DNA of 32,000 bases, from contig NZ_DASUNC010000037.1 of the NCBI RefSeq assembly GCF_036277355.1, positions 112,378-144,377 of the forward strand. The letters are read 5' to 3'. The notes under the pieces were generated by a model. That model was not told the origin of the DNA, did no database searches, and worked only from the letters and a program-made list of their open reading frames with translations. Each line of letters starts with the position of its first letter. Positions within the stretch are counted from its first letter, which is position 1. Below are positions 4,823 to 25,692 of this stretch, piece after piece. The DNA comes from Archangium sp. Lineage in GTDB: Bacteria > Myxococcota > Myxococcia > Myxococcales > Myxococcaceae. A program made the position numbers and the translations under genes.

Positions 4823-4831
4823 CGCGCTCGT

Positions 4832-10834: not shown

Positions 10835-11545
10835 ATGAGAGAGACCTATTACACCGGGGCTTATTGGCCGGCGCGTCGCGAGTCTGCTGAGCAGTGCGCA
10901 CGACGCGCGGAGACCTTCTTTCGTCTCCTCTCGGATTGTGACTCCCTCTTCACGAATTGGTTCGAGCAGGCGAACTCAATCAAAAAAGCGCTGCAACTCC
11001 AGTTCGAGCCCACCTACGAGACGTTCCTGCGATTCTTCATGAGCAGGAAATACAATGAGGGGGCGTTTGGGTTCAGCTTCGGTGCTTGGACGGGGCACAA
11101 GGAGGATGGGCAGGGTGGGATGGTGGCGCTCAGTTGTGGCTCTGCTGTGACTCCCCCTCCAAACAATTGTCTTCTCCACCTGCCCGCGGAGGAACCAGGT
11201 GCCGAGCATGTACTCACCACGCAAGTCCTGATTCAGGTGCTTCGCGCGATGGTCCTGGCCTGGGAGCCAGCTGATGGTGGAGTCTTCTCGAAAGCCTACC
11301 AGGATCTGAGAGATGAGCCCGCGAGCAAGCCCTACACTGGTTGGCTCATGTATCTCTCACGCAACCGTGGGGAGGTGCCGCCTCTACCAGAGCCCGTGCG
11401 CGTCGAATCCGTAGAAGACAAGGGGACCCTCATCATCCTCACCCCGGAGCGCTTCACCGTGGGCAACCCGGCGCACATCGCCCTGGCCGACGAGGTGCGC
11501 ACGTTGCTGGAGCGGGCGGGGTTGTTGACCGGGTACAACCCGTAG
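10835..11545 (+). CDS. Cognate immunity protein candidate (Imm52-like)
   Basis: Track ORF 10835..11545, starting 15 nt after the toxin stop on the same strand. No signal peptide. The N-terminus MRETYYTGAYWPARRESAEQCARRAETFFRLL resembles the Imm52 family start as I remember it. GC is markedly lower than the flanks. Confidence 0.6.
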   Translation: MRETYYTGAYWPARRESAEQCARRAETFFRLLSDCDSLFTNWFEQANSIKKALQLQFEPTYETFLRFFMSRKYNEGAFGFSFGAWTGHKEDGQGGMVALSCGSAVTPPPNNCLLHLPAEEPGAEHVLTTQVLIQVLRAMVLAWEPADGGVFSKAYQDLRDEPASKPYTGWLMYLSRNRGEVPPLPEPVRVESVEDKGTLIILTPERFTVGNPAHIALADEVRTLLERAGLLTGYNP

Positions 11546-13782: not shown

Positions 13783-14412
13783 ATGGGACACGAGGGACAC
13801 GATCACGACCATGACCACGGGCATGGTCACGGGCATCACCATCACCCCCACGGGCACGAGCATGGCCACGACCACGGCCATGACCACTCCCACGGACACG
13901 AGCACGGCTCCGGGCCGGTGGCGGAGCACAAGGCGCACGCGCCGGTGCACGTGAGCACGTTCGTGGTGACGTGCTCGGACAGCCGCGACGAGTCGAAGGA
14001 CGAGAGCGGGCGGGTGCTGCGCGAGCTGCTGGAGGCCGAGGGCCATTCGGTGAGCGGCTACCGCGTCATCAAGGACGAGCCCGAGTCCATCCGCGCCATG
14101 CTGAAGGAGGCGCAGGAGTCCGGTGCGCGGGCCGTCATCTTCAACGGCGGAACGGGCATCGGCCGCCGGGACAGCACGGTGGAGACGCTGCAGGGCCTCT
14201 TCGAGAAGACACTGCCCGGCTTCGGCGAGCTGTTCCGGATGCTGTCCTTCCAGGAGATCGGCAGCGCGGCGATGATGTCGCGGGCCACCGCGGGGACGTA
14301 CCAGGGGATGATCCTCTTCTCGCTCCCGGGCTCGCCGAAGGCGGTGCGGCTCGCGCTGCGCAAGCTCATCCTCCCCGAGCTGGGTCACGCGGTGCGTGAG
14401 CTGACGCGCTGA
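13783..14412 (+). CDS. moaB: MoaB/Mog-family molybdenum cofactor biosynthesis protein with a ~45-aa His-rich N-terminal extension
   Basis: Track ORF 13783..14412. AGGAGG lies 5 nt upstream, and the gene starts 10 nt after the Rieske stop. The tail is GHEGHDHDHDHGHGHGHHHHPHGHEHGHDHGHDHSHGHEHG. The MoaB core follows: TCSDSR...NGGTGIGRRDSTVE...PGFGELFR...GSPKAV. Confidence 0.85.
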   Translation: MGHEGHDHDHDHGHGHGHHHHPHGHEHGHDHGHDHSHGHEHGSGPVAEHKAHAPVHVSTFVVTCSDSRDESKDESGRVLRELLEAEGHSVSGYRVIKDEPESIRAMLKEAQESGARAVIFNGGTGIGRRDSTVETLQGLFEKTLPGFGELFRMLSFQEIGSAAMMSRATAGTYQGMILFSLPGSPKAVRLALRKLILPELGHAVRELTR

Positions 14413-14423
14413 GCCACGGACTT

Positions 14424-14469
14424 CCGGCCGGGCCTCGCGGGCCTTCCTCTCCGCGCGAGGTCTGGCCGG
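14424..14469. terminator. Imperfect GC-rich hairpin between convergent moaB and the RCK/RyR gene
   Basis: CCGGCCGGGCCTCGCG (14424-14439) pairs with CGCGAGGTCTGGCCGG (14454-14469) with two mismatches. No U-tract follows. Confidence 0.3.
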
Positions 14470-14478
14470 TCCGCTGCG

Positions 14479-16242
14479 TCATCCCGCGCGCCGCGGCCTC
14501 GCTTCCTCCGAGTCCTCCCGGACGAGGCGCTGGCCGATGAGCGCGAGCAGCTCGGGAATCTGCCGGATCGCGGCCCGGTCGTTGTCCCGGTACGTCTCCT
14601 CGAGCTCGGCCCACGGAACGATGCACGGGTGCGTCTTCGCCACGTCATCTCGAGGGCCCTTGCGCCACCCATCGAGCAGGTACCGCGCGCACCAGCGGTC
14701 GTGCTCCATGCGCGCCAACAGCTCCACCTCGTCGGGGGTGAAGGCGAACCCTTCCGTGCTCGATGAGGCGGGTTCGAGCCCGCACCCCACGGCTCGCAGC
14801 TTGACGGGGATGTGGTCCGCCTGTTGACGGTTCGACTCGCGGAAGAACTCGTCGAGCTCGGGCCACTCCCTCAGGGAGGCACGCGCCCCCAGGACTTCTC
14901 CCTCCGCCAGCTTGCGCCGCAGGTAGTCCGTGTGCGCCGTGCGCGCGAGCAGATCCAACGTCTCGCCCAGGATGCTCTCGCGGTTGCACAGCCGGTCGAT
15001 CATCCCGAAGACGCTGATCCGTCCGTTCCAGCGGCCCTCGCCCGCGCCCTGCACCAGGGCCGACATCCCCGCCTCGTGCGACATGCGCACCCGCACCGGC
15101 ACCCGCCGTCCGCGCAGCCGCTCCACCAGCGTCAGTCCACAGGCTAGGCCGCGGCGGTCGTCGTCGAAGCACACCACGATGTCCAGGAGCCGGTGCGGAT
15201 CCTGTCCCCACGCCTCCAGGCGCGTGAGCACCTCGGCGTACTCCACGTCGCCCTCGAGCACGTCCAGGTCCGCCACCTCGGTGAACCCCGGGCACCTGCC
15301 GAGGAACCGCTGCCGCCGCTCCTCGGCCTTCCGGTCGACGATCGTCACCCGCAGGCGGGAGCCGTTGGCCAGGTGCGTCAGGCGGGCGGCCTGCAGCGCC
15401 ACGCTTTCTCCCATCTGCCCGAACCCCACCACGCACAGGTGCACGAAGCGCGGGTCTCCAGGCCCCACCCGCTCCCGGTCCAGCGGGTGGTCGCGCAGCA
15501 GCACACGGGCCGCCGCCTCGTGGATGTTGAAGGGCTGGGCCTCCACTGGCTCCGGGCCCGTCAGCACCTTCGAGGCGCGGATGAGCCCGCACAGCTGGAG
15601 ATCTCCCACGTGGGCGAGGACACGCAGGGGCGTGGTGCGTCCGGGGGCCTGCTCTCGCACGAGCCGGCGCGCGGCGAGGGCTGTCTCGATGTTCGCGCCA
15701 TCATCGCCGGTGACCGCGAACAGGAGCGCGGCCTGGGCCACGCGGGCCTGACGGAGGATGGCCTCGTCGGCCGCCGCGCTCAGCAGCACGAGCGCGCCCG
15801 ACTCCCGCGCCGCGAGCAGGGAGTCGTTCTCCTCGTCCTTCTCGATGATGACGACCCGCTCGCCCCGGGACAGCAGGTCCTGGGCGAGTTGGTGCCCCTT
15901 GCGCCCCAGGCCGCACACCACCACATGGCCGGAGAGCCGGCGCAGCCTCAGCCGCTCGAGCTCGCCCGCGAAGAGCACGGAGCCGGCGCGCAGCACCGCG
16001 TAGAAGGACACGGCCGCGGAGGACCAGCGGGCCACGTCGAGCGTCCAGGGCGTCCTGCCCGGCAGCACCTGGAGCTGCAGCACGAAGAGCTGCACCGACT
16101 GGTAGAGCAGGTCCGAGGCACCGAAGAGGGGATCTCCCAGGTAGTCGCGGAGCCCCACCACACCCAGGCCGAGGGTGGAGAGCACCCACGCCACGACCAT
16201 TCCGGGCTCATGATCGCGGAGGAAGGCAAGGAGACGTCGCAT
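14479..16242 (-). CDS. Membrane protein with a 2-TM channel-like N-terminus, two RCK/TrkA-N NAD-binding domains and two C-terminal RyR repeats
   Basis: Track ORF 14479..16242. Hydrophobic segments MVVAWVLSTLGLGVVGL and WSSAAVSFYAVLRAGSVLF. Rossmann motifs VVCGLGRKGHQLA and VVGFGQMGESVA. RyR-like repeats LARTAHTDYLRRKL...REWPELDEFFRESNRQQADHIPVKL and LARMEHDRWCARYLLDGWRKGP..THPCIVPWAELEETYRDNDRAAIRQIPELL. Confidence 0.8.
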   Translation of the reverse strand: MRRLLAFLRDHEPGMVVAWVLSTLGLGVVGLRDYLGDPLFGASDLLYQSVQLFVLQLQVLPGRTPWTLDVARWSSAAVSFYAVLRAGSVLFAGELERLRLRRLSGHVVVCGLGRKGHQLAQDLLSRGERVVIIEKDEENDSLLAARESGALVLLSAAADEAILRQARVAQAALLFAVTGDDGANIETALAARRLVREQAPGRTTPLRVLAHVGDLQLCGLIRASKVLTGPEPVEAQPFNIHEAAARVLLRDHPLDRERVGPGDPRFVHLCVVGFGQMGESVALQAARLTHLANGSRLRVTIVDRKAEERRQRFLGRCPGFTEVADLDVLEGDVEYAEVLTRLEAWGQDPHRLLDIVVCFDDDRRGLACGLTLVERLRGRRVPVRVRMSHEAGMSALVQGAGEGRWNGRISVFGMIDRLCNRESILGETLDLLARTAHTDYLRRKLAEGEVLGARASLREWPELDEFFRESNRQQADHIPVKLRAVGCGLEPASSSTEGFAFTPDEVELLARMEHDRWCARYLLDGWRKGPRDDVAKTHPCIVPWAELEETYRDNDRAAIRQIPELLALIGQRLVREDSEEARPRRAG

Positions 16243-16373
16243 GTGCCCGCGAGTCTACCTCGCCCGCCGGAGCGGAAGGAGCGGGTGGGAAGCAGCCAGG
16301 GGAACGTCCTGGAGCCTTGCTCGGTCGAGGAGCCGCGTTCTAGCGTGCCGCGCAACGTATTTCGGGAGGGTGC

Positions 16374-18584
16374 ATGTCCATCGTGGAGTCCCGCCTCGAC
16401 ACCGTGACGCTCTACCATCAGGGCGCGCGGGTAACCCGGTTGCTCTCGCTGGACTGTCCCGGGGGCAAGCCGCCCACGGTGCTGGAGATCCCCCGGCTGC
16501 CGCTGTCCCTGTTCGACGCCACCGTGCGCGTGCGCGTGCTGTCCACGGACAATCCCCAGGCGGACCTTTCCGCCACCAACGTGCGCGTGGGGTTGTGGAT
16601 CCCTCCCCGGGAAGCCCCCCTGGACACGGTGGACGAGGCCGCGCTGCGCTCCCTGCGCCAGCAGGTGCGGACCGTGGAGAGCCAGCTGCGGCAGCTCGAT
16701 TGGGAGATGTCCATCCTCGCCGGCATCCCCGTGCCGGAGCGTCCGGAGCCGGAGGAGGGCAAGCCCCCGCCGCCCGCTCCCCTGGGCGCACGGCTCGCCC
16801 TGGAGCAGTTCTCCCAGGACGGGGTGCAGTCCCGCCTCGTGGAGGCGCGTGCCCTGCGCGAGCAGCTCCGCAAGCTGAGGGAGGACGTGGCCGACCTCGA
16901 GGCCCGGATGGCGAGGGCCTCCACCGCGCGCGAGGTGACCGCGCGGGAGCTCCACAAGTCCGTCCACGTGCAGCTGCGCCACGCAGGCGGCGAGCTCCGG
17001 CGCGCGGAGCTCTCCCTCGAGTATTTCATCCCCGGCGCCCGCTGGGTTCCCTCCTACCAGTGCCGCCTGTCGCGGGACTGCCGGCAGGCGGAGCTGGTCA
17101 CGCGTGCCCTCATCTGCCAGGACTCGGGAGAGGACTGGCGCGGCGTGAAGCTGGTGCTCTCCACCGCCGCCCCCATGAGCTGGACGGAGCTGCCGGAGCT
17201 GTCCTCCATCCGCATCGGCCGCGCCCAGCCTCCGTTGCCCGCTCGCGCCGGTTTCCGCCCGCCCCCGAAGGGCGCCACCGCGCTCTTCTCCGACTATGAC
17301 CGCGACCGCCAGTCCTTGACCGTCCAGGCGCCGTTCATGCCGTCGTACTCGCCGCCCGCGCTGGCGGCCCCCTCGGATCTGGAGGAGGGCGTCGTCTTCG
17401 GCGGAGTGAGTGACGTCATCGAGCAACGCGAGGAGCGGAGGCGGAGCAAGAAGGTCTCGCGCCCGAGCCTCGACGCACTGGACGATGACATGGTCATGGC
17501 CGAGAGGTCGGCCGTGTACAGCGAGGTCTCCGCGGATGAGGGGGAGGTGGCGGCGATGGACGAGCCGGCCTACCCCATGGCACCTCCGCCGGCTCCCGCG
17601 CCCATGGCCGCCCGCCCTGCTCCCGCGCGCTCCAAGGGCGTGTCGCGCGGGGGTCCGGGGGGTCCCGCGAGCGGTGGTGGGGGCCCCTCGCAGGCCGGCC
17701 TGGAGGCGGTGGTCTTCACCCACCTGCGGCTCTCTTCGCCGGCCGATAGCATGCGCAACCGGCTCCAGCCCGTCGACGCGCGGCGCTTCTATCTGGAGTC
17801 GCTGTCCCGGTTCCAGGTGGAGGTGAATTTCGATGTCATGTCCGCGGTGGAGGAGGCCGAGCGGCGTGCCCTCGCCGCGGCCCACCAGGGGCTTCCGGCC
17901 GGCACCTCGGACGTCCGGGCGGCCAGTGGCCACTTCGACTTCAGCTACACGGCCGATGCCACGGTGGACGTCCCGTCCGACAACACCTTCCACTCCGTGG
18001 CCGTGGGCACGCGCACCGGCGAGTCCAGTGTCCTCTACGTGGCCGTCCCGCGCGAGGACAGCAACGTCTACCGCCAGGCGCAGGTGACGAACCCGCTGTC
18101 CGCTCCCATGCTGCCGGGCCCGGCCGAGGTCTACGTGGGCGGCGAGTATGTGCTCTCCACCACGCTGCCCTCGGTGCCCCCGCGTGGCGAGTTCAAGCTG
18201 GGCCTGGGCGTGGAGCAGGCCATCCGCTGCGCGCGCAACACCCGCTTCAGCGAGGCCCGCAGCGGCGAGAAGATCGTCGCGACGACGGAGCTGTGGCACG
18301 ACATCCTCATCGACCTCGTCAACAACCTGGACCGGGAGATCGTCTGCGAGGTCCGCGAGCGCATTCCCCAGCCCGCGCCGAACGCGGAGGTGGTGGTCGA
18401 GGAGAGCACCGTCACCCCCGCGTGGGAGCCCTATGCGCAGGAGGAGCGTGGCAGTGTGCTCGAGGGAGGACGCCGCTGGCGCCTCACCGTCCCCGCCAAC
18501 GGGACGAGCAAGCTGTCCGCCCGGTACGTGGTGAAGCTGTATGCCAACAACGAGCTCAACGGCGGCAACCGCCGGGAGGCCTGA
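16374..18584 (+). CDS. DUF4140/DUF4139 (MuiA-like, TIGR02231-type) protein, long paralog with a disordered insert
   Basis: Track ORF 16374..18584, with GGGAGGG upstream. N-terminal VTLYHQGARVTR, then a coiled-coil stretch (LRQQVRTVESQLRQLDWE...LREQLRKLREDVADLEARMA), YFIPGARWVPSYQCRL, GEDWRGVKLVLSTAAP, and C-terminal LPGPAEVYVGGEYVLSTTLPSVPPRGEFKLGLGVEQ. No signal peptide. Confidence 0.8.
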   Translation: MSIVESRLDTVTLYHQGARVTRLLSLDCPGGKPPTVLEIPRLPLSLFDATVRVRVLSTDNPQADLSATNVRVGLWIPPREAPLDTVDEAALRSLRQQVRTVESQLRQLDWEMSILAGIPVPERPEPEEGKPPPPAPLGARLALEQFSQDGVQSRLVEARALREQLRKLREDVADLEARMARASTAREVTARELHKSVHVQLRHAGGELRRAELSLEYFIPGARWVPSYQCRLSRDCRQAELVTRALICQDSGEDWRGVKLVLSTAAPMSWTELPELSSIRIGRAQPPLPARAGFRPPPKGATALFSDYDRDRQSLTVQAPFMPSYSPPALAAPSDLEEGVVFGGVSDVIEQREERRRSKKVSRPSLDALDDDMVMAERSAVYSEVSADEGEVAAMDEPAYPMAPPPAPAPMAARPAPARSKGVSRGGPGGPASGGGGPSQAGLEAVVFTHLRLSSPADSMRNRLQPVDARRFYLESLSRFQVEVNFDVMSAVEEAERRALAAAHQGLPAGTSDVRAASGHFDFSYTADATVDVPSDNTFHSVAVGTRTGESSVLYVAVPREDSNVYRQAQVTNPLSAPMLPGPAEVYVGGEYVLSTTLPSVPPRGEFKLGLGVEQAIRCARNTRFSEARSGEKIVATTELWHDILIDLVNNLDREIVCEVRERIPQPAPNAEVVVEESTVTPAWEPYAQEERGSVLEGGRRWRLTVPANGTSKLSARYVVKLYANNELNGGNRREA

Positions 18585-18585
18585 C

Positions 18586-20205
18586 ATGAGCACGGCCATC
18601 CAGACCCTGGGTGTGGAGCGCTACGAGCCCGCCTTCCCCGAGGCGGCTCCCGTCCTGGACGCGCCGGTGCGCGTCGTGACGTTGCTGGAGGATCGGGCGC
18701 AGGTGACTCGCGGCGGCACGGTGCGCGTGCGCGCGGGGCAGAACCGCGTCGTGGTCCAGGGCGTGGCTCCGGTGATGCAGGACGTGTCCCTGCGCGCCGA
18801 GGTCATCTCCGGACGGGCCCGTGTGGCGGACGTGCGCGTCCGCCGCAGCCTGCGCATCCGGATGGCGGACAAGCCCGAGGCGGCGCGGGTGCTCGAGGAG
18901 CGCATCGAGGCCCTGCGGCGCGAGCGCGAGCAGGTGCTGGAGGACCAGGCCCGCGCCCGTGCTCGCTTCGATCGCGTCCAGCGGATGCTGGTGCTCGGCG
19001 CCTCGGAGATTCCCGAGGACGCGGGGTGGGGCATGGGTGCCGCGGCCCAGTGGCAGGACACGTTCGATTCCCTGTTCCGCAAGGCCCGCCAGCTGCGCGA
19101 GGCGGCGCTGAAGGCCACCTTCACCGCGGAGCGGCTGGCCGAGGAGATCGCCGCCGTGACGCGCCAGCGTCAGGCGATGGCTCGCGTGGACCAGCAGGTG
19201 GTGGGCTGGCTGGAGGTGGACGTGCTCGCCGAGGCCGAGGGCGAGGTGGAGGTCCGCATCCACTACGTGGTGCCCAACGCCCTGTGGCGGCCGCTGCACT
19301 CGGCGCGCCTGCTGGAGGGGAAGCGGATCCTCTTCGCCTCGTCCGCCGCGGTCTGGCAGGACACCGGCGAGGACTGGAAGGAGGCGGAGCTGCGCTTCTC
19401 CACGGCGCGCTCCTCGCTGGGCATCGAGCCGCCCCTGCTGCAGGCGGACCTGCTCACCGTGAAGAAGAAGAGCGAGACGGTGGTGGTGCAGGCCCGGCAG
19501 GTCCAGGTGCAGAAGGCCGGACTGGGCAGTTCGCCTGCCTCGGGCGGGGCCGCTCCGGCGGCACCCTCCGCCCTGGATCTGCCCGGCGTGGATGATGGCG
19601 GGGAGACGCGCAACCTGAGGGCGCCCGGACGGAACACCATCGTCTCGGATGGGAGGCCCCACATCATTCCGCTCTTCACCTTCGAGGCCGAGGCGGAGTC
19701 GTCGCTCGTGGCCTTCCCGGAGCTGGAGACGCAGGTGTTCCTGCGGGCGGTGGCGCGCAACACCTCGCCCAACCCGGTGCTGGCGGGGCCGGTGGAGCTG
19801 CTGCAGGAGAACGGCTTCGTGGGCTGGACCCAGACGCTGTTCGTGGCGCCCCAGGAGAAGTTCGAGCTGAGCTTCGGCCCGGAGGAGTCCATCCGCATCC
19901 AGCGCGAGGCGAAGCGGGAGAGCGAGCTCCACCCGGTGAGCAAGTGGAACGAGACCACGATGCGGCTCACCCTCTACCTCTCCAACCTGTCGGGGAGCGC
20001 GCGCTCCGTGGCGGTCTCCGAGCGCCTGCCCGTGTCGGAGATCGAGCACGTGAAGGTGGAGTTGGACCGCGAGAAGACCAGCGGCGTGCCGGTGCTCGAC
20101 GAGAACGGCTTCTGCACATGGAAGGTCGAGCTGCCCGCCAACGGTCATGCCCGGCTGCACCTGGTGTTCAAGGTCTCCACGGCACCGGGCGTGCAGAGCG
20201 CCTGA
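18586..20205 (+). CDS. DUF4140/DUF4139 (MuiA-like) protein, short paralog
   Basis: Track ORF 18541..20205, trimmed to ATG 18586 (GGGAGG upstream), one nt after the preceding TGA. Blocks parallel the upstream paralog: VVTLLEDRAQVTRGG, a coiled coil, YVVPNALWRPLHSARL, GEDWKEAELRFSTARS, and LAGPVELLQENGFVGWTQTLFVAPQEKFELSFGPEE. Confidence 0.8.
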   Translation: MSTAIQTLGVERYEPAFPEAAPVLDAPVRVVTLLEDRAQVTRGGTVRVRAGQNRVVVQGVAPVMQDVSLRAEVISGRARVADVRVRRSLRIRMADKPEAARVLEERIEALRREREQVLEDQARARARFDRVQRMLVLGASEIPEDAGWGMGAAAQWQDTFDSLFRKARQLREAALKATFTAERLAEEIAAVTRQRQAMARVDQQVVGWLEVDVLAEAEGEVEVRIHYVVPNALWRPLHSARLLEGKRILFASSAAVWQDTGEDWKEAELRFSTARSSLGIEPPLLQADLLTVKKKSETVVVQARQVQVQKAGLGSSPASGGAAPAAPSALDLPGVDDGGETRNLRAPGRNTIVSDGRPHIIPLFTFEAEAESSLVAFPELETQVFLRAVARNTSPNPVLAGPVELLQENGFVGWTQTLFVAPQEKFELSFGPEESIRIQREAKRESELHPVSKWNETTMRLTLYLSNLSGSARSVAVSERLPVSEIEHVKVELDREKTSGVPVLDENGFCTWKVELPANGHARLHLVFKVSTAPGVQSA

Positions 20206-21207
20206 GTCGAGAACGGCCTGTGGCGGCTCGACGCCGCCAGCGGCACCACCAACGCCTGGGGCGCGATGGCTGGACAGAGTGGACTCCCGCTGGTGAGCGG
20301 CCAGACGTACACCCTGTCCTTCACCGCCTCCGCCTCGGCGAGCGTGAGCATCCTCACCACGGTGCAACTGGACAGCGCCCCCTACACGGCCACCCTGAGC
20401 AAGCAGGTCGCGCTCGACGGCACGTCGCGGCGCTATTCGTTCCCCTTCACCTCGTCCGTGAGCTCCGCTCAGGGGCAGGTGACCTTCCAGTTGGGCGGCC
20501 GTGGTGCCCTTACCGTCCGGCTCGACGACATCTCGCTCACCCTGGTGGCCTACAACATCCCCGGCCGTGACTGCGGCAGTCACTCGGGCGGCGGCGCGGG
20601 CTCTCCCGATGCCTACCGCTCGTGGATCTCCGCTTTCGTCTCGGGCCTCGGTGCCCGTCCCGCCATCGTGCTCATCGAGCCGGATGCACTGGCCCAACTC
20701 GACTGCCTGCCGAGCGACTGGGACCGGCAGACCCGGTTGGATCTGCTGCGCTACGCCACCGAGCAACTGCGCGATCGCGCGCCCAACACGTGGGCCTACA
20801 TGGACGGAGGCAACGCGCGGTGGATTGCACCCGACACCATGGCGCAGCGGCTGCAGTCGGCCGGGGTGGGCAACATCCGGGGCTTCGTGGCCAACGTCTC
20901 CAACTTCTACACCACGTCCGAGACGGTCACCTACGGCAACGCGGTCAACGCCGCCCTGTCCAGCCGCTACGGCTACACCCGGCCCTTCGCGGTGGACACC
21001 AGCCGCAACGGCAATGGCTCCAACGGGGAGTGGTGCAACCCGGCCGGACGCAAGCTGGGGACTCCGACGCAGGCGGGCGGTGGCGCGGAGTTGCTGCTGT
21101 GGGTGAAGGTCCCCGGCGACTCGGATGGCCAGTGCGGCATCGCCCCGGGGACGCCCGCGGGCCAGTTCGACCCGGAGCTCGCCTGGCGGCTCATCCACGG
21201 CACCTGA
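20206..21207 (+). pseudogene. Remnant of a CBM-GH6 cellulase: a carbohydrate-binding-module fragment fused directly to the C-terminal ~220 aa of a GH6 catalytic domain
   Basis: Track ORF 20266..21207; the frame is open back to 20206. LVAYNIPGRDCGSHSGGGAGSPDAYRSWISAFVSGL...IEPDALAQL...DTSRNGNG..EWCNP.GRKLGTP...LLWVKVPGDSDG aligns from memory to Thermobifida-type Cel6A, from the YNxPGRDC block onward. The ~75 aa of the catalytic domain that normally precede this block are absent, as are a linker and a signal peptide. Confidence 0.6.
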
Positions 21208-21278
21208 GCCGGCTCAGGAAACGTTCCGCGCGACGTGAACGGCGGTCACTCGAACCGGAACGTGTAACTCCGTCATCT

Positions 21279-21325
21279 GGGACCCACCCTCCAGGGCGAT
21301 GTCTCCTGCCCTGAGGGTGGGTCCC
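21279..21325 (+). terminator. Strong stem-loop downstream of the GH6 remnant
   Basis: GGGACCCACCCTCCAGGGC (21279-21297), a 10-nt loop, then GCCCTGAGGGTGGGTCCC (21308-21325). That gives 18 paired positions with one bulged C, followed by GTTGT. Confidence 0.45.
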
Positions 21326-21425
21326 GTTGTCATGCCATGAGCACGAGGGGAGTACCGGGAGGGCATTGTTGACACACTCCTGTCGAAGCCACCTTGACGT
21401 ACATCTCGTCGTGGAGGGTCTTCAT

Positions 21426-22451
21426 ATGGCAACCAGGCATTTCTTCCCTCGTCGAATCCTGGCCCTGTTGGCCATCTCGTTCTCGGCCCATGCGTTCGCT
21501 TCCGTGAGGGCCGCCGGCACCTTCGAGGCCGTGCGCTCCTGTGAGGCCTTCAAGTCCTTCAAGAAGGGCACCAATCCCGGGTTCGTCCGGCTGGAGCCGG
21601 GACAGAGCTATGCCATCGAGGAGCTCAACGAGCAGAACTGGGATTGGATACGCGTCAACGTCCCGGACGTGCGGGAGCCGAGCCGGTGGGTGTCCAAGGA
21701 ATGCGGCGTGGTCCAGCTCGTTCCAGGGGAAACCGGTCCGTCCGGGCCCGGTGTCAAACCGCCCCAGCAAGAGACACCCGGCGGGCGGGCCCAGTGCCAC
21801 ACCGCCAACACCTACGACAGCAACGTGCTCTCCATGAGCTGGCAGCCCGGCTTCTGCGAACACGCCAGCTTCCACGGAACGAAACCGGAGTGCCAGGCGC
21901 TCCAGAGCGGTGAGCTCTCCATCTCGCACCTCACGATCCATGGGCTGTGGCCCAACAAGAAGTCCTGTGGAACCCGCTACGGAGACTGCCGGCAGGTTCC
22001 GCTCTCGCTCTCCGAGGACACCCTGGCGGAGGTGGGGCCGTGGATGCCGAACCTCATGTTCGGGACGGATTTCGCCACCCATGAATGGGACAAGCACGGC
22101 ACCTGTCAGGCCCGGCAGGATGATGAGTATTTCCTCACCATCAAGCAGTTGACCGAGCTCGTCGATCGTTCCGCGATCGGTGAGTTCATCCGCTCCAACA
22201 TCGGCAAGGAGATGAGCGTGAGCGACTTCTTCGCCGACGTGCGGCGTGAGCTCGGCCCCGACGTGGAGCAGCGGATTCAGTTGCTGTGCGCGGGAGGGCG
22301 GTTCCTGCAGGAGGTTCGGCTGAGCCTGCCGCGGGACATCGTTCCCAGCCCGGACATCGCCAAGATGACGCAGGGCGCGCCGCGGATGGGCTCGAAAACG
22401 AGCAACTGCAACACCGACACCATCTACATCGAGCGCTCGGGCAAGGACTGA
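21426..22451 (+). CDS. Secreted RNase T2-family ribonuclease with an N-terminal SH3-like domain
   Basis: Track ORF 21327..22451, trimmed to ATG 21426 (GGAGGG 7 nt upstream). Signal peptide MATRHFFPRRILALLAISFSAHAFA. Catalytic CAS I LTIHGLWPN and CAS II THEWDKHGTC. Confidence 0.88.
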   Translation: MATRHFFPRRILALLAISFSAHAFASVRAAGTFEAVRSCEAFKSFKKGTNPGFVRLEPGQSYAIEELNEQNWDWIRVNVPDVREPSRWVSKECGVVQLVPGETGPSGPGVKPPQQETPGGRAQCHTANTYDSNVLSMSWQPGFCEHASFHGTKPECQALQSGELSISHLTIHGLWPNKKSCGTRYGDCRQVPLSLSEDTLAEVGPWMPNLMFGTDFATHEWDKHGTCQARQDDEYFLTIKQLTELVDRSAIGEFIRSNIGKEMSVSDFFADVRRELGPDVEQRIQLLCAGGRFLQEVRLSLPRDIVPSPDIAKMTQGAPRMGSKTSNCNTDTIYIERSGKD

Positions 22452-22485
22452 GGGGACGCCCGGCGCGAGCGCGGGGAGAGAGGGA

Positions 22486-22514
22486 GCGCCAGGCTTCGTC
22501 ACGGTGCCTGGCGC
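22486..22514. terminator. Perfect 9-bp GC hairpin between convergent genes
   Basis: GCGCCAGGC (22486-22494), an 11-nt loop, then GCCTGGCGC (22506-22514). It lies between the RNase T2 stop and the propeller lipoprotein stop. Confidence 0.4.
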
Positions 22515-22547
22515 CCCGGATGTCTCCAGAGCGCGCTCGCCTCGGCG

Positions 22548-24512
22548 CTACGGCGTTGGCCGAGGCTGGCGCAGGATGGCCCCCTGCGCCCCCGAGACCC
22601 ACAGCTCCCTGCCCACCGGCGTCACGCCGTAGAGGTCCAGGGTGGTGGGGAGGGCCATGCGCCGCCACGAGGCGCCGTCCCAGTGCAGCAGCGCCCCTCC
22701 CGTGCCCACGGCGTACACCTCGCTCGTGCAGCGGCCCGTGACCGCCAGCAGGCGCTCGATGCCCTGGAGCGCGTCGCTCGACACCTCGCTCCAGTCCTTT
22801 CCATCCCAGTGGAAGAGGCCCGCCGTGTCGCCCTTGCGGCCCACGGCCCACATGTCACGGCGCCAGGAGCCCCACAACGCGGACGCGGTGAAGCCGGGCG
22901 TCGGGTGCTCCTGCCAGCCCTCGCCGTCCCAGTGCAGCAGCTTCCCGGTGCCGGCCACCCACGTGTCCTTCGGGCCGTGGGTCCACACGGCGAACAGCTC
23001 GCCCTGGCCCTCGAGCGCGATGCGCCACGCCTGGCCCTCCCACGCCCAGACGCGCTGCTGGTCCATCGCCCAGACGTTGTCCCGCGCGCTGGCGTGGACA
23101 CGGGTCCTCCAGGGCTCCGGGTCTCCGGGGAGCAGGCCCTGCAACGGTTGGATGCCCGTGCCGGAGACCGTGAACTGGGGGGAGCTGACGGTGCGGCGGG
23201 GGGGCGGGATCAGGTGCGCATGCCAGGTGCCCTCGGACGTCGCCCACGTCGACGCGGCCACGTCGACGCGGGACGGCCCGCCCGGGTTGGCCCAGACCAC
23301 GGCCCCATCGGGGCTGGCCGAGAGCTCCACGAAGTACGCCTCACGAACCGAGGGGGTGCTGGGACTGTAGGCCGCGGGAAGGCCGCGCAGCTGGCGCTGG
23401 TCCCGCCAGGCGCTTCCGTCCCAGCGCAGGATGGCTCCCTCGTCCCCCACGGCCCAGAGGTCGGACGGGCCCGACCCACCGGTGGTGTGCACGTTCCACA
23501 GCGAGGAGGTGCGCCGGGTCGACGTGTCCGTCCTGGGCTCCTCGAGGGTCGTCCACGTGCTGCCATCCCAGTGAAGGATCTGCTTGGACGCCATGCTCGG
23601 GGCCCAGGTCTGGTAGACGAAGACCCAGGCGTCGTTGGCGCCGCCCACCCAGAGGCCCGAGTAGGTGCTGATGCCCGAGCTGGGGGGCGGCGGGATGCGC
23701 TCCTCGCTCCAGGCTCCGTCCTTCCAGAAGTAGGACTCAGGTTGGGCGCCGAAGGTCACCCACCGCCCGGAGTTCCGCTCCCACATGCCCACGGGAGTCG
23801 TGGTGGCGGCGACCTCGGAAGGCACGGCCTGGGCCGCACAGCCCGTGGGCGTGCAGCGCAGCAGCCCGGCATCCTCGACACCGACCCACACGTCATCGGC
23901 CGATAGGACCGACACGCCCCTCAGGTTCGCCGAGGTGCCGCTGGGCACCAGGGCCCACGCGCTGCCGTTCCAGCGCAACAGGCGCCCGCTCTTGCCCGCG
24001 GCCCACACCTCATGGGACGAAGCGCCCTCCACGGAGAGCAGGTCCACGGCGTCCCCGGGGGCCGGGACGGCCGTCCACGCGGAGCCATCGAAGTGCAGGA
24101 GCGTCCCCGCGTCGCCCACGGCCCAGAGGTCGGCCGGACTCGCGCCCCAGATGCCGCGGAGTGTCTGCGAGGTGGGCGTGGACTGCCACGTCCACTGGCC
24201 CTGCGGCGCCTGGTGCAGCACCGTGCCGGCCTGGCCCGCCATCCAGACCCCCCCGGTGGGGTGCGCCCAGACGGCATGGAGGTGGTGGCCCTGGGGCTCA
24301 TGACTCACCCAGCACCAGCCATCGCGGCACGAGCCGGTGCCGGTGGTGGGGACCGCGGCGGGCAAGGGGAGTGCGTCGAGCTCCGCGGCCGTGGGACACG
24401 CGGGGGCCTTCTCGATGTCCGGGGCGGGCGGCTCCTCCCGCTTGCAGCCATTCGTCCAGGTGAGCAGGCACGCGAGCGCGAGCGCCGCGCGCGACAGGTA
24501 GGGTCGTGACAT
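22548..24512 (-). CDS. Lipoprotein with about a dozen beta-propeller-type repeats (WxVG..G.LLHWDGxxW)
   Basis: Track ORF 22548..24869, trimmed to ATG 24512 (GAGGGAA upstream). Lipobox in MSRPYLSRAALALACLLTWTNGC. Repeats include LWAVGDAGTLLHFDGSAWT, VWAAGKSGRLLRWNGSAWA, LWAVGDEGAILRWDGSAWR, TWVAGTGKLLHWDGEGWQ, and VYAVGTGGALLHWDGASWR. Confidence 0.8.
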   Translation of the reverse strand: MSRPYLSRAALALACLLTWTNGCKREEPPAPDIEKAPACPTAAELDALPLPAAVPTTGTGSCRDGWCWVSHEPQGHHLHAVWAHPTGGVWMAGQAGTVLHQAPQGQWTWQSTPTSQTLRGIWGASPADLWAVGDAGTLLHFDGSAWTAVPAPGDAVDLLSVEGASSHEVWAAGKSGRLLRWNGSAWALVPSGTSANLRGVSVLSADDVWVGVEDAGLLRCTPTGCAAQAVPSEVAATTTPVGMWERNSGRWVTFGAQPESYFWKDGAWSEERIPPPPSSGISTYSGLWVGGANDAWVFVYQTWAPSMASKQILHWDGSTWTTLEEPRTDTSTRRTSSLWNVHTTGGSGPSDLWAVGDEGAILRWDGSAWRDQRQLRGLPAAYSPSTPSVREAYFVELSASPDGAVVWANPGGPSRVDVAASTWATSEGTWHAHLIPPPRRTVSSPQFTVSGTGIQPLQGLLPGDPEPWRTRVHASARDNVWAMDQQRVWAWEGQAWRIALEGQGELFAVWTHGPKDTWVAGTGKLLHWDGEGWQEHPTPGFTASALWGSWRRDMWAVGRKGDTAGLFHWDGKDWSEVSSDALQGIERLLAVTGRCTSEVYAVGTGGALLHWDGASWRRMALPTTLDLYGVTPVGRELWVSGAQGAILRQPRPTP

Positions 24513-24762
24513 GGAGTTCCCTCGACTGCCAGGGACTGCCGGCCACTGCCCTGGTGGAGGCCGGACTGTCGCTGAAAATCCCCCAGAAGGGGAGGCGAAA
24601 TCGGGCGGCCCATACCTCGCGGAGATGGTTGGCGGTGTCCGCGAAGGCCGCGGCCGCGGGCTGCCGGGGTGATCCCTCCAGGCCCCTCCTGGCCCCGGGG
24701 AGGGGTTCATGGATGAACTCCGTGGCGGAGTGCGTTGCTCCAGGCTACGGAGTGTCTGAACC

Positions 24763-25692
24763 ATGCCCCCGAGAGCTCGAGGATCCACAGGGCTGAGCCC
24801 GCGAGACGCCGCTCGCCTGCGCCCCTGCCTGGATGCCTTCCTGGCGTCGACGGACAGCCGGGCGCGCATCGCGTTCGATCCGCTCGAGTTTCCCCACCGC
24901 TACCGCGACCCGAGGGACATCGAGGTGAGCGCGCTGCTGGCCGCGGCCCTGGCGTACGGGCGCGCGGACCTGTTCCGGCCCAAGGTGGATGCTCTGCTCG
25001 CGCGCATGGGCCCGTCCCCGGCCGCCTTCGTGCGCGCGCTGGATGTGGCCGGGGCGCGCGAGCTGCTCTCGGGCTTCGTCTACCGCTTCAACGTGGGCAC
25101 GGACGTGGCGGTGCTGCTGCTGGGCATGGGCCGGGCCCTGCGTGAGCTCGGGAGCCTGGAGGCGCTCTTCGTCCAGGGGCTGGAGGCCCGGGGCTCCTGG
25201 CATGGCGCGCTGGATGCGTTCACCTCCGCTCTGCGGGACGTGCCCATGGAGCCCCTGCGCGAGGCGCTCGGGCCCGAGCGCGGGTTGCAGCACCTGTTGC
25301 CCTCGCCCCTCGGAGCCGGCGCGGCCAAGCGGCTCAATCTGTTCCTCCGGTGGATGGTGCGCGGCCCGGATGGCGTGGACCTCGGCATCTGGACGCGGGT
25401 GAGCCCCTCGGCGCTGCTCATCCCGCTGGATACGCATATTGGACGGATCTCGAAGCACCTGGGGCTGACCCGCCGCAATGACCTGAGCTGGCGCACCGCC
25501 GAGGAGGTGACGGCCTCCCTGCGCGCCCTGGATGCCTCGGACCCCGTGCGCTTCGACTTCGCGCTGTGTCACTACGGCATGAGCGGCGTGTGCCCCACGA
25601 AGCCCATTCCGGAGAATTGCTCCCGGTGCAAGTTGCTCCCCGCGTGTTCCGTGGGACAGAAGACCGTGAAGGCGCGGAGCCGCGTGAAGTGA
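24763..25692 (+). CDS. TIGR02757/DUF2400-family protein
   Basis: Track ORF 24763..25692. Recognised from blocks DPLEFPHRY, YRFN, LLPSP..GAAKRLNLFLRWMVR, IPLDTHIGRISKHLGL, and a C-terminal Cys cluster (CHYGMSGVCP...CSRCKLLPAC). The family assignment is from memory. Confidence 0.65.
   Translation: MPPRARGSTGLSPRDAARLRPCLDAFLASTDSRARIAFDPLEFPHRYRDPRDIEVSALLAAALAYGRADLFRPKVDALLARMGPSPAAFVRALDVAGARELLSGFVYRFNVGTDVAVLLLGMGRALRELGSLEALFVQGLEARGSWHGALDAFTSALRDVPMEPLREALGPERGLQHLLPSPLGAGAAKRLNLFLRWMVRGPDGVDLGIWTRVSPSALLIPLDTHIGRISKHLGLTRRNDLSWRTAEEVTASLRALDASDPVRFDFALCHYGMSGVCPTKPIPENCSRCKLLPACSVGQKTVKARSRVK

Follow-up and report, generated by a model that had tools for sequence, protein, structure and literature searches.

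Three genes and the spacer between two of them were analysed in a 32,000-nucleotide stretch of Archangium sp. DNA, hereafter the window. One gene, named RCK-RyR after its domains, is divergent from two genes for DUF4140/DUF4139 proteins (the DUF pair). All three have a GC3 of 0.91-0.93, which indicates that the frames are really coding. The features are as follows.

14479-16242, minus strand: RCK-RyR gene, 587 aa, encoding a channel-like membrane protein, solitary in the window (Pfam, AF2 and fold match)
15940-16242, minus strand: membrane part of RCK-RyR, aa 1-101, with TM1, a pore-helix-like helix, a variable loop at the place of the K+ filter, and TM2 (AF2 helices, KD19, conservation)
14983-15930, minus strand: two Rossmann-type RCK domains, aa ~105-250 and ~264-420, each with GxGxxG and an acidic residue (conservation, fold matches)
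14509-14964, minus strand: RyR (R12-like) domain of two repeats, aa 427-491 and 504-575 (profile match, repeat-versus-repeat hhalign)
16243-16373, no strand: divergent spacer, 131 bp (promoter-like boxes of the DUF operon)
16374-18584, plus strand: long DUF4140/DUF4139 paralogue, 736 aa, with a ~170-aa Pro/Ala/Gly-rich insertion (Pfam, TIGR02231)
18586-20205, plus strand: short DUF4140/DUF4139 paralogue, 539 aa, translationally coupled to the long one (TIGR02231, AF2)

Domains of the RCK-RyR protein

Pfam assigned TrkA_N (aa 107-195, E 1.2e-20) and RyR (aa 506-572, E 2.2e-13) domains to the RCK-RyR protein. The second Rossmann/RCK domain, with GFGQMG at 273-278 and D303, was backed by the AF2 model (pLDDT 88, pTM 0.82), by tandem-RCK fold matches and by the conservation of its motif among 118 homologues. 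In the first motif G111, G113 and G116 are present in 114-117 of these and E134 in 110, the other 8 having Asp; in the second, G273, G275 and G278 are present in 114-117 and D303 in 115. The divergent first RyR repeat aligned to repeat 2 with an hhalign probability of 97.4% (E 1e-11). A previous interpretation made from the DNA letters alone (the sequence-only reading) had placed two RCK and two RyR domains behind a 2-TM N-terminus, and these analyses bear that out.

The same reading called the N-terminus "pore-less". In the AF2 model a pore-helix-like helix (42-55) lies between TM1 (helix 2-35; KD19 maximum 1.81 at aa 13) and TM2 (66-90). No K+ signature was found in the loop at 56-65, which is variable among homologues and has no T-V-G-Y-G, and a relaxed-signature match, TLGLG, falls within TM1. 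Thus "no K+ selectivity filter" is the better description. The conserved residues of the membrane part are Y47, Q51-L52-F53, W66, A71 and R72.

The best PDB fold match was the Geobacter sulfurreducens K+ channel GsuK (PDB 4GX0/1/2/5; E 1.5e-10, ~600 aligned columns); others were the TrkA gating ring and GsuK RCK domains with NAD, ADP or ATP-gamma-S bound. In GsuK, too, two Rossmann-type RCK domains stand in tandem behind the two-TM pore module of each chain; its RCK ring binds NAD+/ADP. However, RCK-RyR has a loop of variable family consensus G-P-x-P-W in place of the T-V-G-Y-G filter and an extra C-terminal two-repeat RyR domain, and the identity to GsuK is only 12-16%, with a modest TM-score of 0.37-0.39. 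A homologue search gave 244 matches at E<=1e-5, and among the matches listed (120) nearly all were full-length and came from many phyla; within myxobacteria, the only named genera among them were Archangium and Vitiosangium. At E<=1e-30, 2,322 representatives of 50%-identity clusters matched. RCK-RyR belongs to a large family of channel-like proteins of the membrane that has gone unstudied, and is its only member here.

The RyR family profile matched RyR R12 chains (E 9.4e-29) and the Bacteroides "putative ryanodine receptor" 3NRT (E 3e-14). The C-terminus belongs to the same domain family (Pfam PF02026) as R12 (Repeat1-2) of animal ryanodine receptors and as RyDEP, with which phages counter defence and which is small, soluble and homodimeric; unlike RyDEP, RCK-RyR has both repeats on a single polypeptide, as an extension of a channel-like bacterial RCK protein. 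According to a 2026 preprint on the phage protein, H75, W78 and D117 of RyDEP contact ADPR, RyDEP-family proteins bind or cleave 2'/3'cADPR, relatives of RyDEP bind these cADPR isomers with nanomolar affinity, and RyR3 R12 binds adenine ligands (PMC13232231). By residue spacing, not by structure-based alignment, these three residues correspond to H514, W517 and D555 in repeat 2; of the 118 homologues, 116 have the His, 111 the Trp and 107 the Asp. The counterpart of RyDEP H100, H538, is found in this protein but in only 38 of 118 homologues, and the first repeat has Tyr and Asn (N471) where repeat 2 has Trp and Asp. On this correspondence the predicted pocket retains the ADPR/cADPR-binding residues of phage RyDEP, an assignment of ligand that draws on that one preprint and on the spacing.

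The DUF4140/DUF4139 operon

Pfam found DUF4140 (E 8.4e-11) and DUF4139 (E 6.2e-29) in the long paralogue, and both proteins exceeded the TIGR02231 (MuiA family) cut-off of 112.6 bits (193.9 long, 273.2 short), in agreement with their earlier description as two MuiA-like paralogues. They are ~27-28% identical to each other over two collinear segments. The genes are one nucleotide apart, as had been stated, with TGAcATG at 18582-18588 and GGGAGG at 18574-18579. We placed the start of the short paralogue at 18586, not at the mechanical ORF start of 18541, because homologues of 536-543 aa then fit at 100% coverage. No hydrophobic segment was found in either protein (KD19 maxima 0.84 and 1.12), which is consistent with the claimed lack of signal peptides. 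The long coiled coil of the sequence-only reading was recovered in the AF2 model of the short paralogue (pLDDT 80.6), in which a beta-sandwich (11-92) is followed by an antiparallel helical hairpin of ~100 residues (97-199), set between beta-sandwich domains, and by further beta domains. A disordered loop in this model (276-340) contains the invariant LPGVDDGG.

The short paralogue has 757 homologues, with identities of 75-77% in Hyalangium and ~50% across Myxococcota. We found the pair in 7 independent Myxococcota contexts with unrelated flanks, always in the order long to short and 1-4 nt apart, long-paralogue orthologues of 723-752 aa preceding the short one in all 7 examined. The DUF pair is an autonomous, tightly coupled two-gene operon conserved across Myxococcota, as the proposal of a coupled operon had anticipated. 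Because the pair recurs in this form, a heteromeric complex, also proposed earlier, is plausible. The operon, with a promoter of its own, would encode two ancient soluble paralogues, whose long helical hairpins most likely bring them together in a heteromeric cytoplasmic complex of coiled coils and beta-sandwiches.

Structure and literature searches gave no handle on the function of the pair. MuiA of Pseudomonas aeruginosa (PA1494; TIGR02231, "mucoidy inhibitor MuiA family") has the DUF4140 plus DUF4139 architecture common to both proteins. MuiA is a single exported protein, whereas the myxobacterial genes form an obligate long and short pair with sigma-70-like boxes and with neither signal peptide nor TM segment. 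SbrI, an ECF sigma factor, drives transcription of muiA, which is overexpressed when the envelope is under stress (PMC10418997). By analogy with this envelope-stress-induced protein, we would guess, with low confidence, at a structural or adaptor-like and possibly stress-related role for the complex.

Gene order and the 131-bp spacer

The sequence-only reading had joined the three genes into one functional module, co-regulated from the divergent gap. The length of that gap, 131 bp, was correct; the gene order in other genomes speaks against the module. Among 80 species-level RCK-RyR loci searched with a DUF4139-family HMM (E<=10), the DUF pair lies beside RCK-RyR in two, both Archangium (L001, A. 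lansingense; L003, A. violaceum), and no DUF4139 gene was found in the other 78, even at that threshold; in the 76 loci from other phyla the pair is not beside RCK-RyR. The Archangium MAG L002 has RCK-RyR 772 bp from DUF2400, an orthologous site without the pair, and the RCK-RyR of Vitiosangium (L004), 77% identical, stands in a wholly different gene context. In six DUF-pair contexts outside the Archangium lineage, which have no flanking genes in common, no RCK-RyR gene was found within 7-8 kb, and the phyletic patterns of the two units differ. Conservation of the neighbourhood was thus seen outside this strain, within the genus only, and failed across Myxococcales and beyond. Within the Archangium lineage the adjacency is kept at all loci except L002, namely the window, L001, L003 and two metagenomic contigs (L085/L086), and persists down to ~80-85% identity. 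The interval from RCK-RyR to DUF2400 is an indel hot spot, in which GH6, RNase T2 and a 773-aa gene are inserted only in this strain.

The spacer contains TTGCTC (16317-16322), an 18-nt gap, TAGCGT (16341-16346) and the RBS GGGAGG (16364-16369); a consensus scan found no strict sigma-70 match in it. In an alignment of upstream regions, the block CTTGC...N18...TAGCGTGCCGCGCA upstream of the long paralogue is conserved in the Archangium loci, and also in L081 and L087, where an ECF sigma gene and a DUF2379 gene, respectively, stand upstream. Since the boxes are conserved whatever gene stands upstream, the shared spacer is not evidence for co-regulation.

Perhaps Archangium co-opted the two units in its own lineage, with RCK-RyR as membrane sensor or gate and the DUF4139 heteromer as cytoplasmic complex cooperating under control of the 131-bp region. 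The short spacer and the divergent orientation, kept together with the adjacency at the loci above, favour this. Nevertheless, we consider it unlikely, given the many RCK-RyR loci without a DUF4139 gene, L002 and Vitiosangium included, the six DUF-pair contexts without RCK-RyR, the boxes that travel together with the pair, and the indel hot spot. Common descent alone explains an adjacency limited to one genus. The reading that we prefer, at a probability of roughly 60%, is that the window contains two functionally independent units, brought together in this genus by an accident of gene order and forming no module.

TIR and RyR neighbours and the role of RCK-RyR

In 31 of the 80 loci, RCK-RyR has a TIR-like gene nearby, a second large protein with RyR, or both; neighbours were called from raw stop-to-stop ORFs, mostly on MAG contigs. 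Immediately downstream, TIR_2 was found in 9 of 72 cases and RyR in 7; immediately upstream, RyR in 9 of 68, RelA_SpoT in 3 and SLATT_1 in 2. Nine TIR neighbours were confirmed by Pfam. The large neighbours carry a C-terminal RyR domain in 27 of 28 cases, with RelA_SpoT in 10, SLOG in 7 and AAA in 9. These TIR and RyR neighbours often have the same orientation and are 4-100 bp away. At L091 two TIR genes come after RCK-RyR, and L007 is one of several loci with TIR, RelA_SpoT-RyR and RCK-RyR on one strand. STAND NTPases also recur near RCK-RyR homologues.

In Thoeris, the ThsB TIR sensor makes cADPR isomers by which an effector is activated. The RCK-RyR homologues of other phyla that directly adjoin TIR_2 genes may follow a similar logic of TIR generator and ligand-activated effector. 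Known Thoeris effectors sense the signal via SLOG or Macro domains, whereas RCK-RyR carries RyR. The RyR domain family binds TIR-made cADPR isomers (PMC13232231). The link between TIR and RyR at the family level is an interesting lead, and the claim of a three-gene module is weak. In the 32-kb window neither a TIR gene nor a second RyR gene was found, PADLOC gave no match for any of the three proteins analysed, and 49 of the 80 loci, all myxobacterial ones included, have no such neighbour; for this reason the reading as a conflict system may not hold in the window.

The two intact GxGxxG-plus-acidic Rossmann motifs and the conserved RyR pocket are consistent with the earlier suggestion of a nucleotide-gated membrane protein, and RCK-RyR is plausibly a nucleotide-gated channel-like protein with putative channel activity. 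We infer a GsuK-like, channel-type protein, probably tetrameric and lacking K+ selectivity, whose cytoplasmic part would offer three adenine-nucleotide sites per subunit, two in the Rossmann RCK domains for NAD(H)/ADP and one in the RyR pocket for ADPR or a cyclic-ADPR isomer. An adenine-ribose ligand would then gate ion flux across the inner membrane. Beside TIR genes and other RyR-domain proteins in other phyla, RCK-RyR probably senses a signal derived from TIR activity, or acts as its effector; for the solitary Archangium protein the signal may be the nucleotide pool of the cell itself, or may come from generators whose genes lie elsewhere on the genome.

Alternatively, RCK-RyR could have a housekeeping role, as a cation channel or a regulator of transport like GsuK, Kch or TrkA, tuned by NAD(H)/ATP/ADP status, with the RyR domain as a further sensor of metabolic state and the TIR, STAND and RyR neighbours incidental. 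The fold matches with NAD, ADP or ATP analogues bound, the intact Rossmann motifs, the majority of loci without a conflict-type neighbour, the lack of a PADLOC match, and the neighbours in Vitiosangium and the window (ribD, nrdR, glyA, PolX, MoCF and the like) agree with this. We nonetheless consider it rather unlikely, since TIR_2 downstream and RyR upstream are the commonest Pfam families among immediate neighbours, far above expectation for such rare domains by our own estimate, often closely spaced in one orientation and in several loci joined on one strand, and since the protein has no K+ filter. It is very improbable that the RyR domain has catalytic activity like that of phage RyDEP, which would make RCK-RyR a membrane-anchored glycosidase or sponge removing ADPR-based signals, a regulator or off-switch instead of a signal-gated channel. 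The equivalents of the catalytic dyad of RyDEP, H514 and D555, are indeed conserved, but none of 8 phage homologues cleaved the signals, though 6 of the 8 bound them, despite high sequence conservation (PMC13232231). Furthermore, in the first repeat N471 stands where Asp would be, and a pure enzyme or sponge would need neither a conserved two-TM, pore-helix-like part nor two RCK domains, both of which RCK-RyR has.

Gene order and its conservation

The G+C of the window is about 70%, and frame analysis, with GC3 values of 0.91-0.93, pointed to real genes at 14479-16242 on the minus strand and at 16374-18584 and about 18535-20205 on the plus strand. The three genes and the domains of their products are as follows.

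Genes of the divergent stretch, with domains from Pfam and NCBIfam
14479-16242, minus strand: RCK-RyR gene, channel-like membrane protein of 587 aa; TrkA_N at aa 107-195, RyR at aa 506-572 (Pfam)
16374-18584, plus strand: DUFa, 736 aa; DUF4140 and DUF4139 (Pfam); TIGR02231 'MuiA family', 193.9 bits versus a cut-off of 112.6 (NCBIfam)
18586-20205, plus strand: DUFb, 539 aa; DUF4140 and DUF4139 (Pfam); TIGR02231 'MuiA family', 273.2 bits versus a cut-off of 112.6 (NCBIfam)

The domains, the TGAcATG junction of DUFa and DUFb (18582-18588) and the 131-bp spacer between RCK-RyR and DUFa had all been observed from the sequence alone; Pfam, NCBIfam and the sequence confirmed them, and the domain architectures were borne out. 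The start of DUFb was fixed at 18586 by homologues of 536-543 aa that span 100% of the 539-aa product, and a GGGAGG lies six bases 5' of this ATG. Another ATG, at 18541, was ruled out as the start by homologue lengths, coverage and ribosome binding site, which favoured 18586.

The sequence-only reading had gone further and proposed that the three genes form one module. Scanning one genome per species (GTDB) with an RCK-RyR alignment gave 80 loci, taken with flanks of up to 10 kb; the phyla represented include Myxococcota, Planctomycetota, Verrucomicrobiota, Chloroflexota, Gemmatimonadota, Acidobacteriota and Bacteroidota. All six-frame ORFs of these loci were then compared with a DUF4139-family HMM at E<=10, under which control loci scored 788-898 bits. 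The DUF pair was found only in Archangium lansingense and A. violaceum; in distant phyla the scan thus ruled out a partnership of the pair with RCK-RyR. Among the matches listed, the closest relatives of the window's proteins are from Archangium (for RCK-RyR, A. gephyra at 94% identity and A. violaceum at 91%).

Using the genes of the window as tblastn queries, we found a common Archangium backbone of Rce1, trypsin-like, PolX, MoCF, RCK-RyR, [DUFa-DUFb], DUF2400 and holB. In the window, GH6, RNase T2 and 773-aa genes are inserted 3' of the DUF pair. Two metagenomic contigs whose DUFb is 85% identical still have RCK-RyR, DUFa, DUFb and DUF2400 together. In an Archangium MAG the pair is absent and RCK-RyR lies 772 bp from DUF2400. 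Vitiosangium encodes a 77% identical RCK-RyR protein and has none of the window's neighbours in common; there a TPR-peptidase M48 gene and a PilZ gene precede RCK-RyR, which lies beside ribD, nrdR and glyA. The arrangement was therefore seen only in Archangium-lineage loci, being absent from the Archangium MAG, Vitiosangium, the 76 loci of other phyla and six other contexts of the DUF pair, so that conservation of the module beyond close relatives did not hold. The adjacency is thus a genus-level trait, already broken once inside the genus. On this evidence the three-gene 'module' is best read as an artefact of synteny among close relatives, and it does not merit further treatment as a system.

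The DUF4140/DUF4139 pair

DUFa and DUFb have the N-terminal DUF4140 and C-terminal DUF4139 that define TIGR02231/MuiA proteins; they are 27-28% identical and collinear, and no signal peptide or hydrophobic segment was found in either. Homologues of DUFb numbered 757, at 75-77% identity in Hyalangium and about 50% in Myxococcota. We compared seven independent contexts of the pair, from Hyalangium versicolor, a Myxococcaceae MAG, two 'Deltaproteobacteria/Myxococcales' MAGs and three metagenomic contigs, one of which stands for the Archangium-like arrangement. In all seven, a DUF4140/DUF4139 gene of 723-752 aa is followed after 1-4 nt by one of 523-542 aa, which bears out the proposed operon of coupled paralogues. 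The flanks differ in each context, and RCK-RyR occurs only in the Archangium-like contigs.

Cross-species alignment identified a conserved block 5' of DUFa, TTGC(T/C)C-N18-TAGCGTGCCGCGCA, at 16317-16346 of the window. Archangium keeps it, as does Hyalangium, with an ECF sigma gene upstream, and so does a further locus (L087), with a DUF2379 gene upstream. Being conserved across these contexts, it indicates that the DUF operon carries its own promoter-like element, with about 74 bp of the 131-bp spacer left for the divergent RCK-RyR gene. Transcription of the operon is predicted to begin near 16353, about 7 nt past the TAGCGT box. The boxes were found only through this alignment: a sigma-70 consensus scan of 14300-20400 gave no promoter, and a terminator consensus scan of the same interval gave one match, at chance level.

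In an AlphaFold2 (AF2) model of DUFb (pLDDT 80.6), a beta-sandwich (aa 11-92) is followed by some 100 residues of antiparallel helical hairpin (aa 97-199) and then by further beta domains. A sequence search of the PDB with DUFb found nothing meaningful (best match E 0.84), and a fold search of the PDB with the model gave no match at E<1e-3; weak, low-TM likenesses to mu-homology domains, OST subunits and MacA/EmrA hairpins were not interpreted. In BFVD the fold matched proteins from Tupanvirus, Pandoravirus, Pithovirus and Orpheovirus (E 2.5e-15 to 6e-11), all uncharacterised and one bearing a DUF4139 label; the DUF4139 family therefore extends to giant viruses of amoebae. A loop predicted to be disordered (pLDDT below 50) covers aa 276-340 of DUFb (nt about 19411-19605). 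It contains LPGVDDGG (aa 332-339), invariant in 30 Myxococcota homologues of 46-90% identity, and so short a conserved motif within a disordered stretch is suggestive of a site of binding or modification.

Our literature search for DUF4139, DUF4140, TIGR02231 and PA1494 returned incidental mentions only. For Pseudomonas aeruginosa muiA, one paragraph of a review (PMC10418997) describes transcription by the ECF sigma factor SbrI and induction by envelope stress. The Hyalangium pair is divergent from an ECF sigma gene and a zf-HC2 anti-sigma/CHAT fusion gene (L081:1967-5553), and a weak Sigma70_r4 gene lies upstream of the pair in another context (L084:4461-5096); no sigma gene accompanies it in the other contexts. 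These sigma neighbours recall the SbrI control of muiA. As to MuiA-like export to the envelope, neither DUFa nor DUFb has a signal peptide; as to ECF control, their conserved upstream boxes look sigma-70-like. Because the SbrI link is the only functional note that we found, it is with low confidence that we suggest that the pair may form a heteromeric cytoplasmic structural or adaptor complex. The genes are more members of a catalogued, uncharacterised family. Among myxobacterial operons that have neither a function nor a solved structure, and hardly any literature, the pair is one of the better conserved, and as an obligate long and short pair with a promoter-like element of its own it makes a clean genetic target.

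The RCK-RyR protein and its family

The TrkA_N domain (PF02254) of the RCK-RyR protein scores 74.4 bits versus a cut-off of 23.8, and the Rossmann fold, GxGxxG loop and acidic residue of RCK/TrkA_N domains are all present. In such domains the acidic residue at the end of beta-2 binds the nucleotide ribose. The glycines of both loops, G111, G113 and G116 in RCK1 (GLGRKG, 111-116) and G273, G275 and G278 in RCK2 (GFGQMG, 273-278), are kept in 114-117 of 118 homologues. The acidic residues are E134 in RCK1 (110/118, with D in 8) and D303 in RCK2 (115/118).

An AF2 model made from 23 diverse homologues (pLDDT 88.1, pTM 0.82) opens with a long TM helix (2-35); after a short helix (42-55) and a loop comes a second long one (66-90), and then two Rossmann domains and a helical C-terminal domain. 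The top PDB match in Foldseek was GsuK (E 1.5e-10, about 600 aligned columns), ahead of TrkA gating rings, MthK, Slo1 and CASTOR. GsuK, a K+ channel of two TM helices and two RCK domains in each chain, was crystallised with NAD and ADP; the monomer model of RCK-RyR matches it along its whole length. K+ channels of the MthK/GsuK/Kch type consist of TM1, a pore helix and TM2, as a tetramer under an RCK gating ring, with a filter of the T-V-G-Y-G type between pore helix and inner helix. Unlike them, RCK-RyR has no selectivity filter: T-V-G-Y-G was not found in loop 56-65 (LQVLPGRTPW), which is variable across the 118 homologues, and the sole match to a relaxed filter pattern is TLGLG, part of TM1 at about aa 23-27 and restricted to the Archangium/Vitiosangium clade. 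By its defining motif the protein is therefore channel-like but not a K+ channel, and a canonical K+ channel was ruled out. Judged by its sequence, it is a new variant of the RCK-gated channels, with no K+ filter and with a putative RyR sensor.

The RyR domain (PF02026) scores 50.7 bits versus a cut-off of 27.4. Pfam detects repeat 2 only; the claim of two RyR repeats was nevertheless right, since repeat 1 (aa 427-491) aligned with repeat 2 (aa 504-575) at 97.4% probability in hhalign. The family profile matches RyR R12 chains (E 9.4e-29) and 3NRT, a single-repeat protein of Bacteroides (E 3e-14), and by these matches the C-terminal domain can be firmly assigned to the RyR (R12) family.

A possible ligand is suggested by RyDEP, an anti-defence protein of phages from the RyR family. 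According to a preprint of May 2026 (PMC13232231), TIR enzymes make cADPR isomers that RyR domains bind; six of eight phage homologues tested bound TIR-made signals, and the two that were characterised did so with nanomolar affinity. The ligand contacts H75, W78, H100 and D117 are common to animal RyR R12 domains (PMC13232231). Their spacing, His, Trp(+3), His(+25), Asp(+42), is matched exactly in the alignment of the family profile with R12, and RCK-RyR has, with one residue deleted in between, the putative equivalents H514, W517, H538 and D555 of these RyDEP-type cADPR binders/glycosidases, a mapping from spacing and not from a structure-based alignment. Among 118 homologues H514 is kept in 116, W517 in 111 and D555 in 107, and H538 in only 38. 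Repeat 1 has His, Tyr and Asn in place of the His, Trp and Asp of repeat 2.

The family is large, with 2,322 cluster representatives at 50% identity (E<=1e-30), and the best 150 of these are nearly all full-length matches. When all ORFs up to 6 kb from the 80 homologues were clustered, two groups of neighbours recurred, large RyR-ending proteins (about 850-1,080 aa) and STAND NTPases with DUF4062 or TIR, then NACHT/AAA_16, then TPR or WD40. Of 28 large neighbours, 27 end in a RyR domain and 13 lie within 100 bp of RCK-RyR; their other domains are a RelA_SpoT start (10), AAA (9), SLOG (LSDAT_prok; 7), bpMoxR (3) and a novel STAND NTPase domain (3), and nine match the PADLOC candidate PDC-S33 through the RelA_SpoT part. 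Immediately downstream of RCK-RyR, TIR_2 is the commonest Pfam family (9/72), followed by RyR (7), and Pfam confirmed TIR_2 in nine named neighbours; immediately upstream, RyR leads (9/68), then RelA_SpoT (3) and DUF4062, NACHT and SLATT_1 (2 each). In three loci (L028, L064, L076) the TIR_2 gene follows RCK-RyR on the same strand after 48-104 bp, L007 has TIR, RelA_SpoT-RyR and RCK-RyR in that order, and in an independent contig (L091) RCK-RyR precedes two TIR genes. Altogether a TIR-like gene, a second large RyR protein or both accompany 31 of the 80 loci, with both in 10, the TIR count being an approximate one by ad hoc HMM. The recurrent partners of the family are thus TIR domains and other RyR-domain proteins, not DUF4139.

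Same-strand clusters of RCK-RyR, TIR_2 and large RyR genes occur at L007:5679-12254, L028:9289-10479, L042:8372-15062, L064:10221-11285, L076:2574-3824 and L091:2601-7724, and at others of the loci from other phyla. They may be a family of RyR-domain loci, so far undescribed, that serve in conflict or signalling. In one further locus (L089:9778-10317) a gene for a 179-aa RyR-only protein lies 23 bp downstream of the RCK-RyR homologue, and its product might bind or hydrolyse the same ligand on its own. The three proteins of the window had no match in PADLOC-DB v2 at E<=0.01. A phage origin of the RCK-RyR or the DUF family was unsupported, with no relatives of either among the IMG/VR viral contigs.

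The reading that we prefer, at a probability of roughly 0.6, is that the stretch holds two independent units, a nucleotide-gated channel-like protein and an autonomous heteromeric DUF complex. Of the original interpretation it keeps the domain architectures, the operon of coupled paralogues and nucleotide sensing, and it gives up the three-gene module. A lineage-specific version of that module would agree with the shared order in Archangium, but is improbable given the MAG that lacks the pair. Since the cADPR isomers made by TIR enzymes are bound by RyR domains, the simplest reading of the TIR-bearing loci is that the RyR domain receives a TIR-derived signal there; RCK-RyR would be one of the effectors, a pore opened by the ligand. 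Thoeris-like TIR systems place the signal generator beside the effector, which is seen for some homologues in other phyla but not in the window: there is no TIR, STAND or second RyR gene in its 32 kb, nor a TIR-like gene in the four Archangium and Vitiosangium loci. Such neighbours are lacking in 49 of the 80 loci, all the myxobacterial ones included, and hence the Archangium copy may be a metabolic-state channel, gated by NAD(H)/ADP/ADPR, or may answer generators encoded elsewhere.

A bolder proposal, less likely than not, is that RCK-RyR proteins are an undescribed class of signal-gated channels whose RyR domain senses TIR-made ADPR-type signals (2'/3'cADPR) and opens a non-selective pore, and that with their RelA/SpoT-SLOG-RyR and AAA-RyR neighbours they form a new 'RyR-sensor' branch of Thoeris-like immunity. 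The Archangium copy would then work in trans, its TIR or STAND partners being encoded elsewhere in a genome that we take to be 12-13 Mb. A plain housekeeping RCK channel would suit the loci with no TIR or RyR neighbours; it would account less readily for the missing filter and the frequent TIR and RyR neighbours of the family, and we consider it unlikely. The RyDEP-like contacts would also be expected of a membrane-anchored RyDEP-like enzyme or sponge, which is very improbable for a protein with a conserved channel-like membrane part and two RCK domains.

No paper on TrkA-RyR proteins of bacteria came up in our literature search, RyR, TrkA and DUF4062 go unmentioned in Kaur et al. 2020 (PMC7159879), and the link of the family to TIR signalling appears to be undescribed. 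With thousands of members and recurrent TIR and RyR-domain neighbours, RCK-RyR offers the larger pay-off. These neighbours and the preprint on RyR binding of TIR-made cADPR lead to a testable hypothesis, a bacterial channel gated through RyR. If it is true, direct nucleotide gating of a channel via the domain of the animal ryanodine receptor would have a prokaryotic precedent; a positive result would also touch on the long-standing question of a direct action of cADPR on ryanodine receptors, and would add a new effector type to bacterial immunity.

Other features of the window

Further genes of the window
3263-4822, minus strand: J-domain protein gene, DnaJ domain at aa 350-417
4832-6448, minus strand: Hsp70 gene, paired with the J-domain gene
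9020-10819, plus strand: Tox-REase-5 toxin gene, 599 aa, domain at the C-terminal end (E 9e-14)
10835-11545, plus strand: Imm52 immunity gene (E 9e-75), next after the toxin gene
20266-21207: CBM4_9-GH6 gene, truncated-looking
21327-22451: RNase T2 family gene
22548-24869, minus strand: 773-aa gene, weak beta-propeller match

The CBM4_9-GH6, RNase T2 and 773-aa genes (20266-24869) separate the DUF pair from DUF2400. In A. lansingense another stretch of about 3.4 kb lies there, with no match to the window's insert genes, and in the two Archangium-like metagenomic contigs (L085, L086) DUF2400 is directly 3' of the pair. This interval is an indel hot spot.

Tox-REase-5 and Imm52 form a polymorphic-toxin pair in a region of lower G+C (0.66). 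The pair is found in A. violaceum, and the same site is empty of it in A. lansingense and the Archangium MAG; it is therefore a strain-variable insertion. The J-domain protein has an N-terminal Pro/Ala-rich low-complexity region of about 340 aa, which accounts for the 80% G+C peak at 4001-5000.
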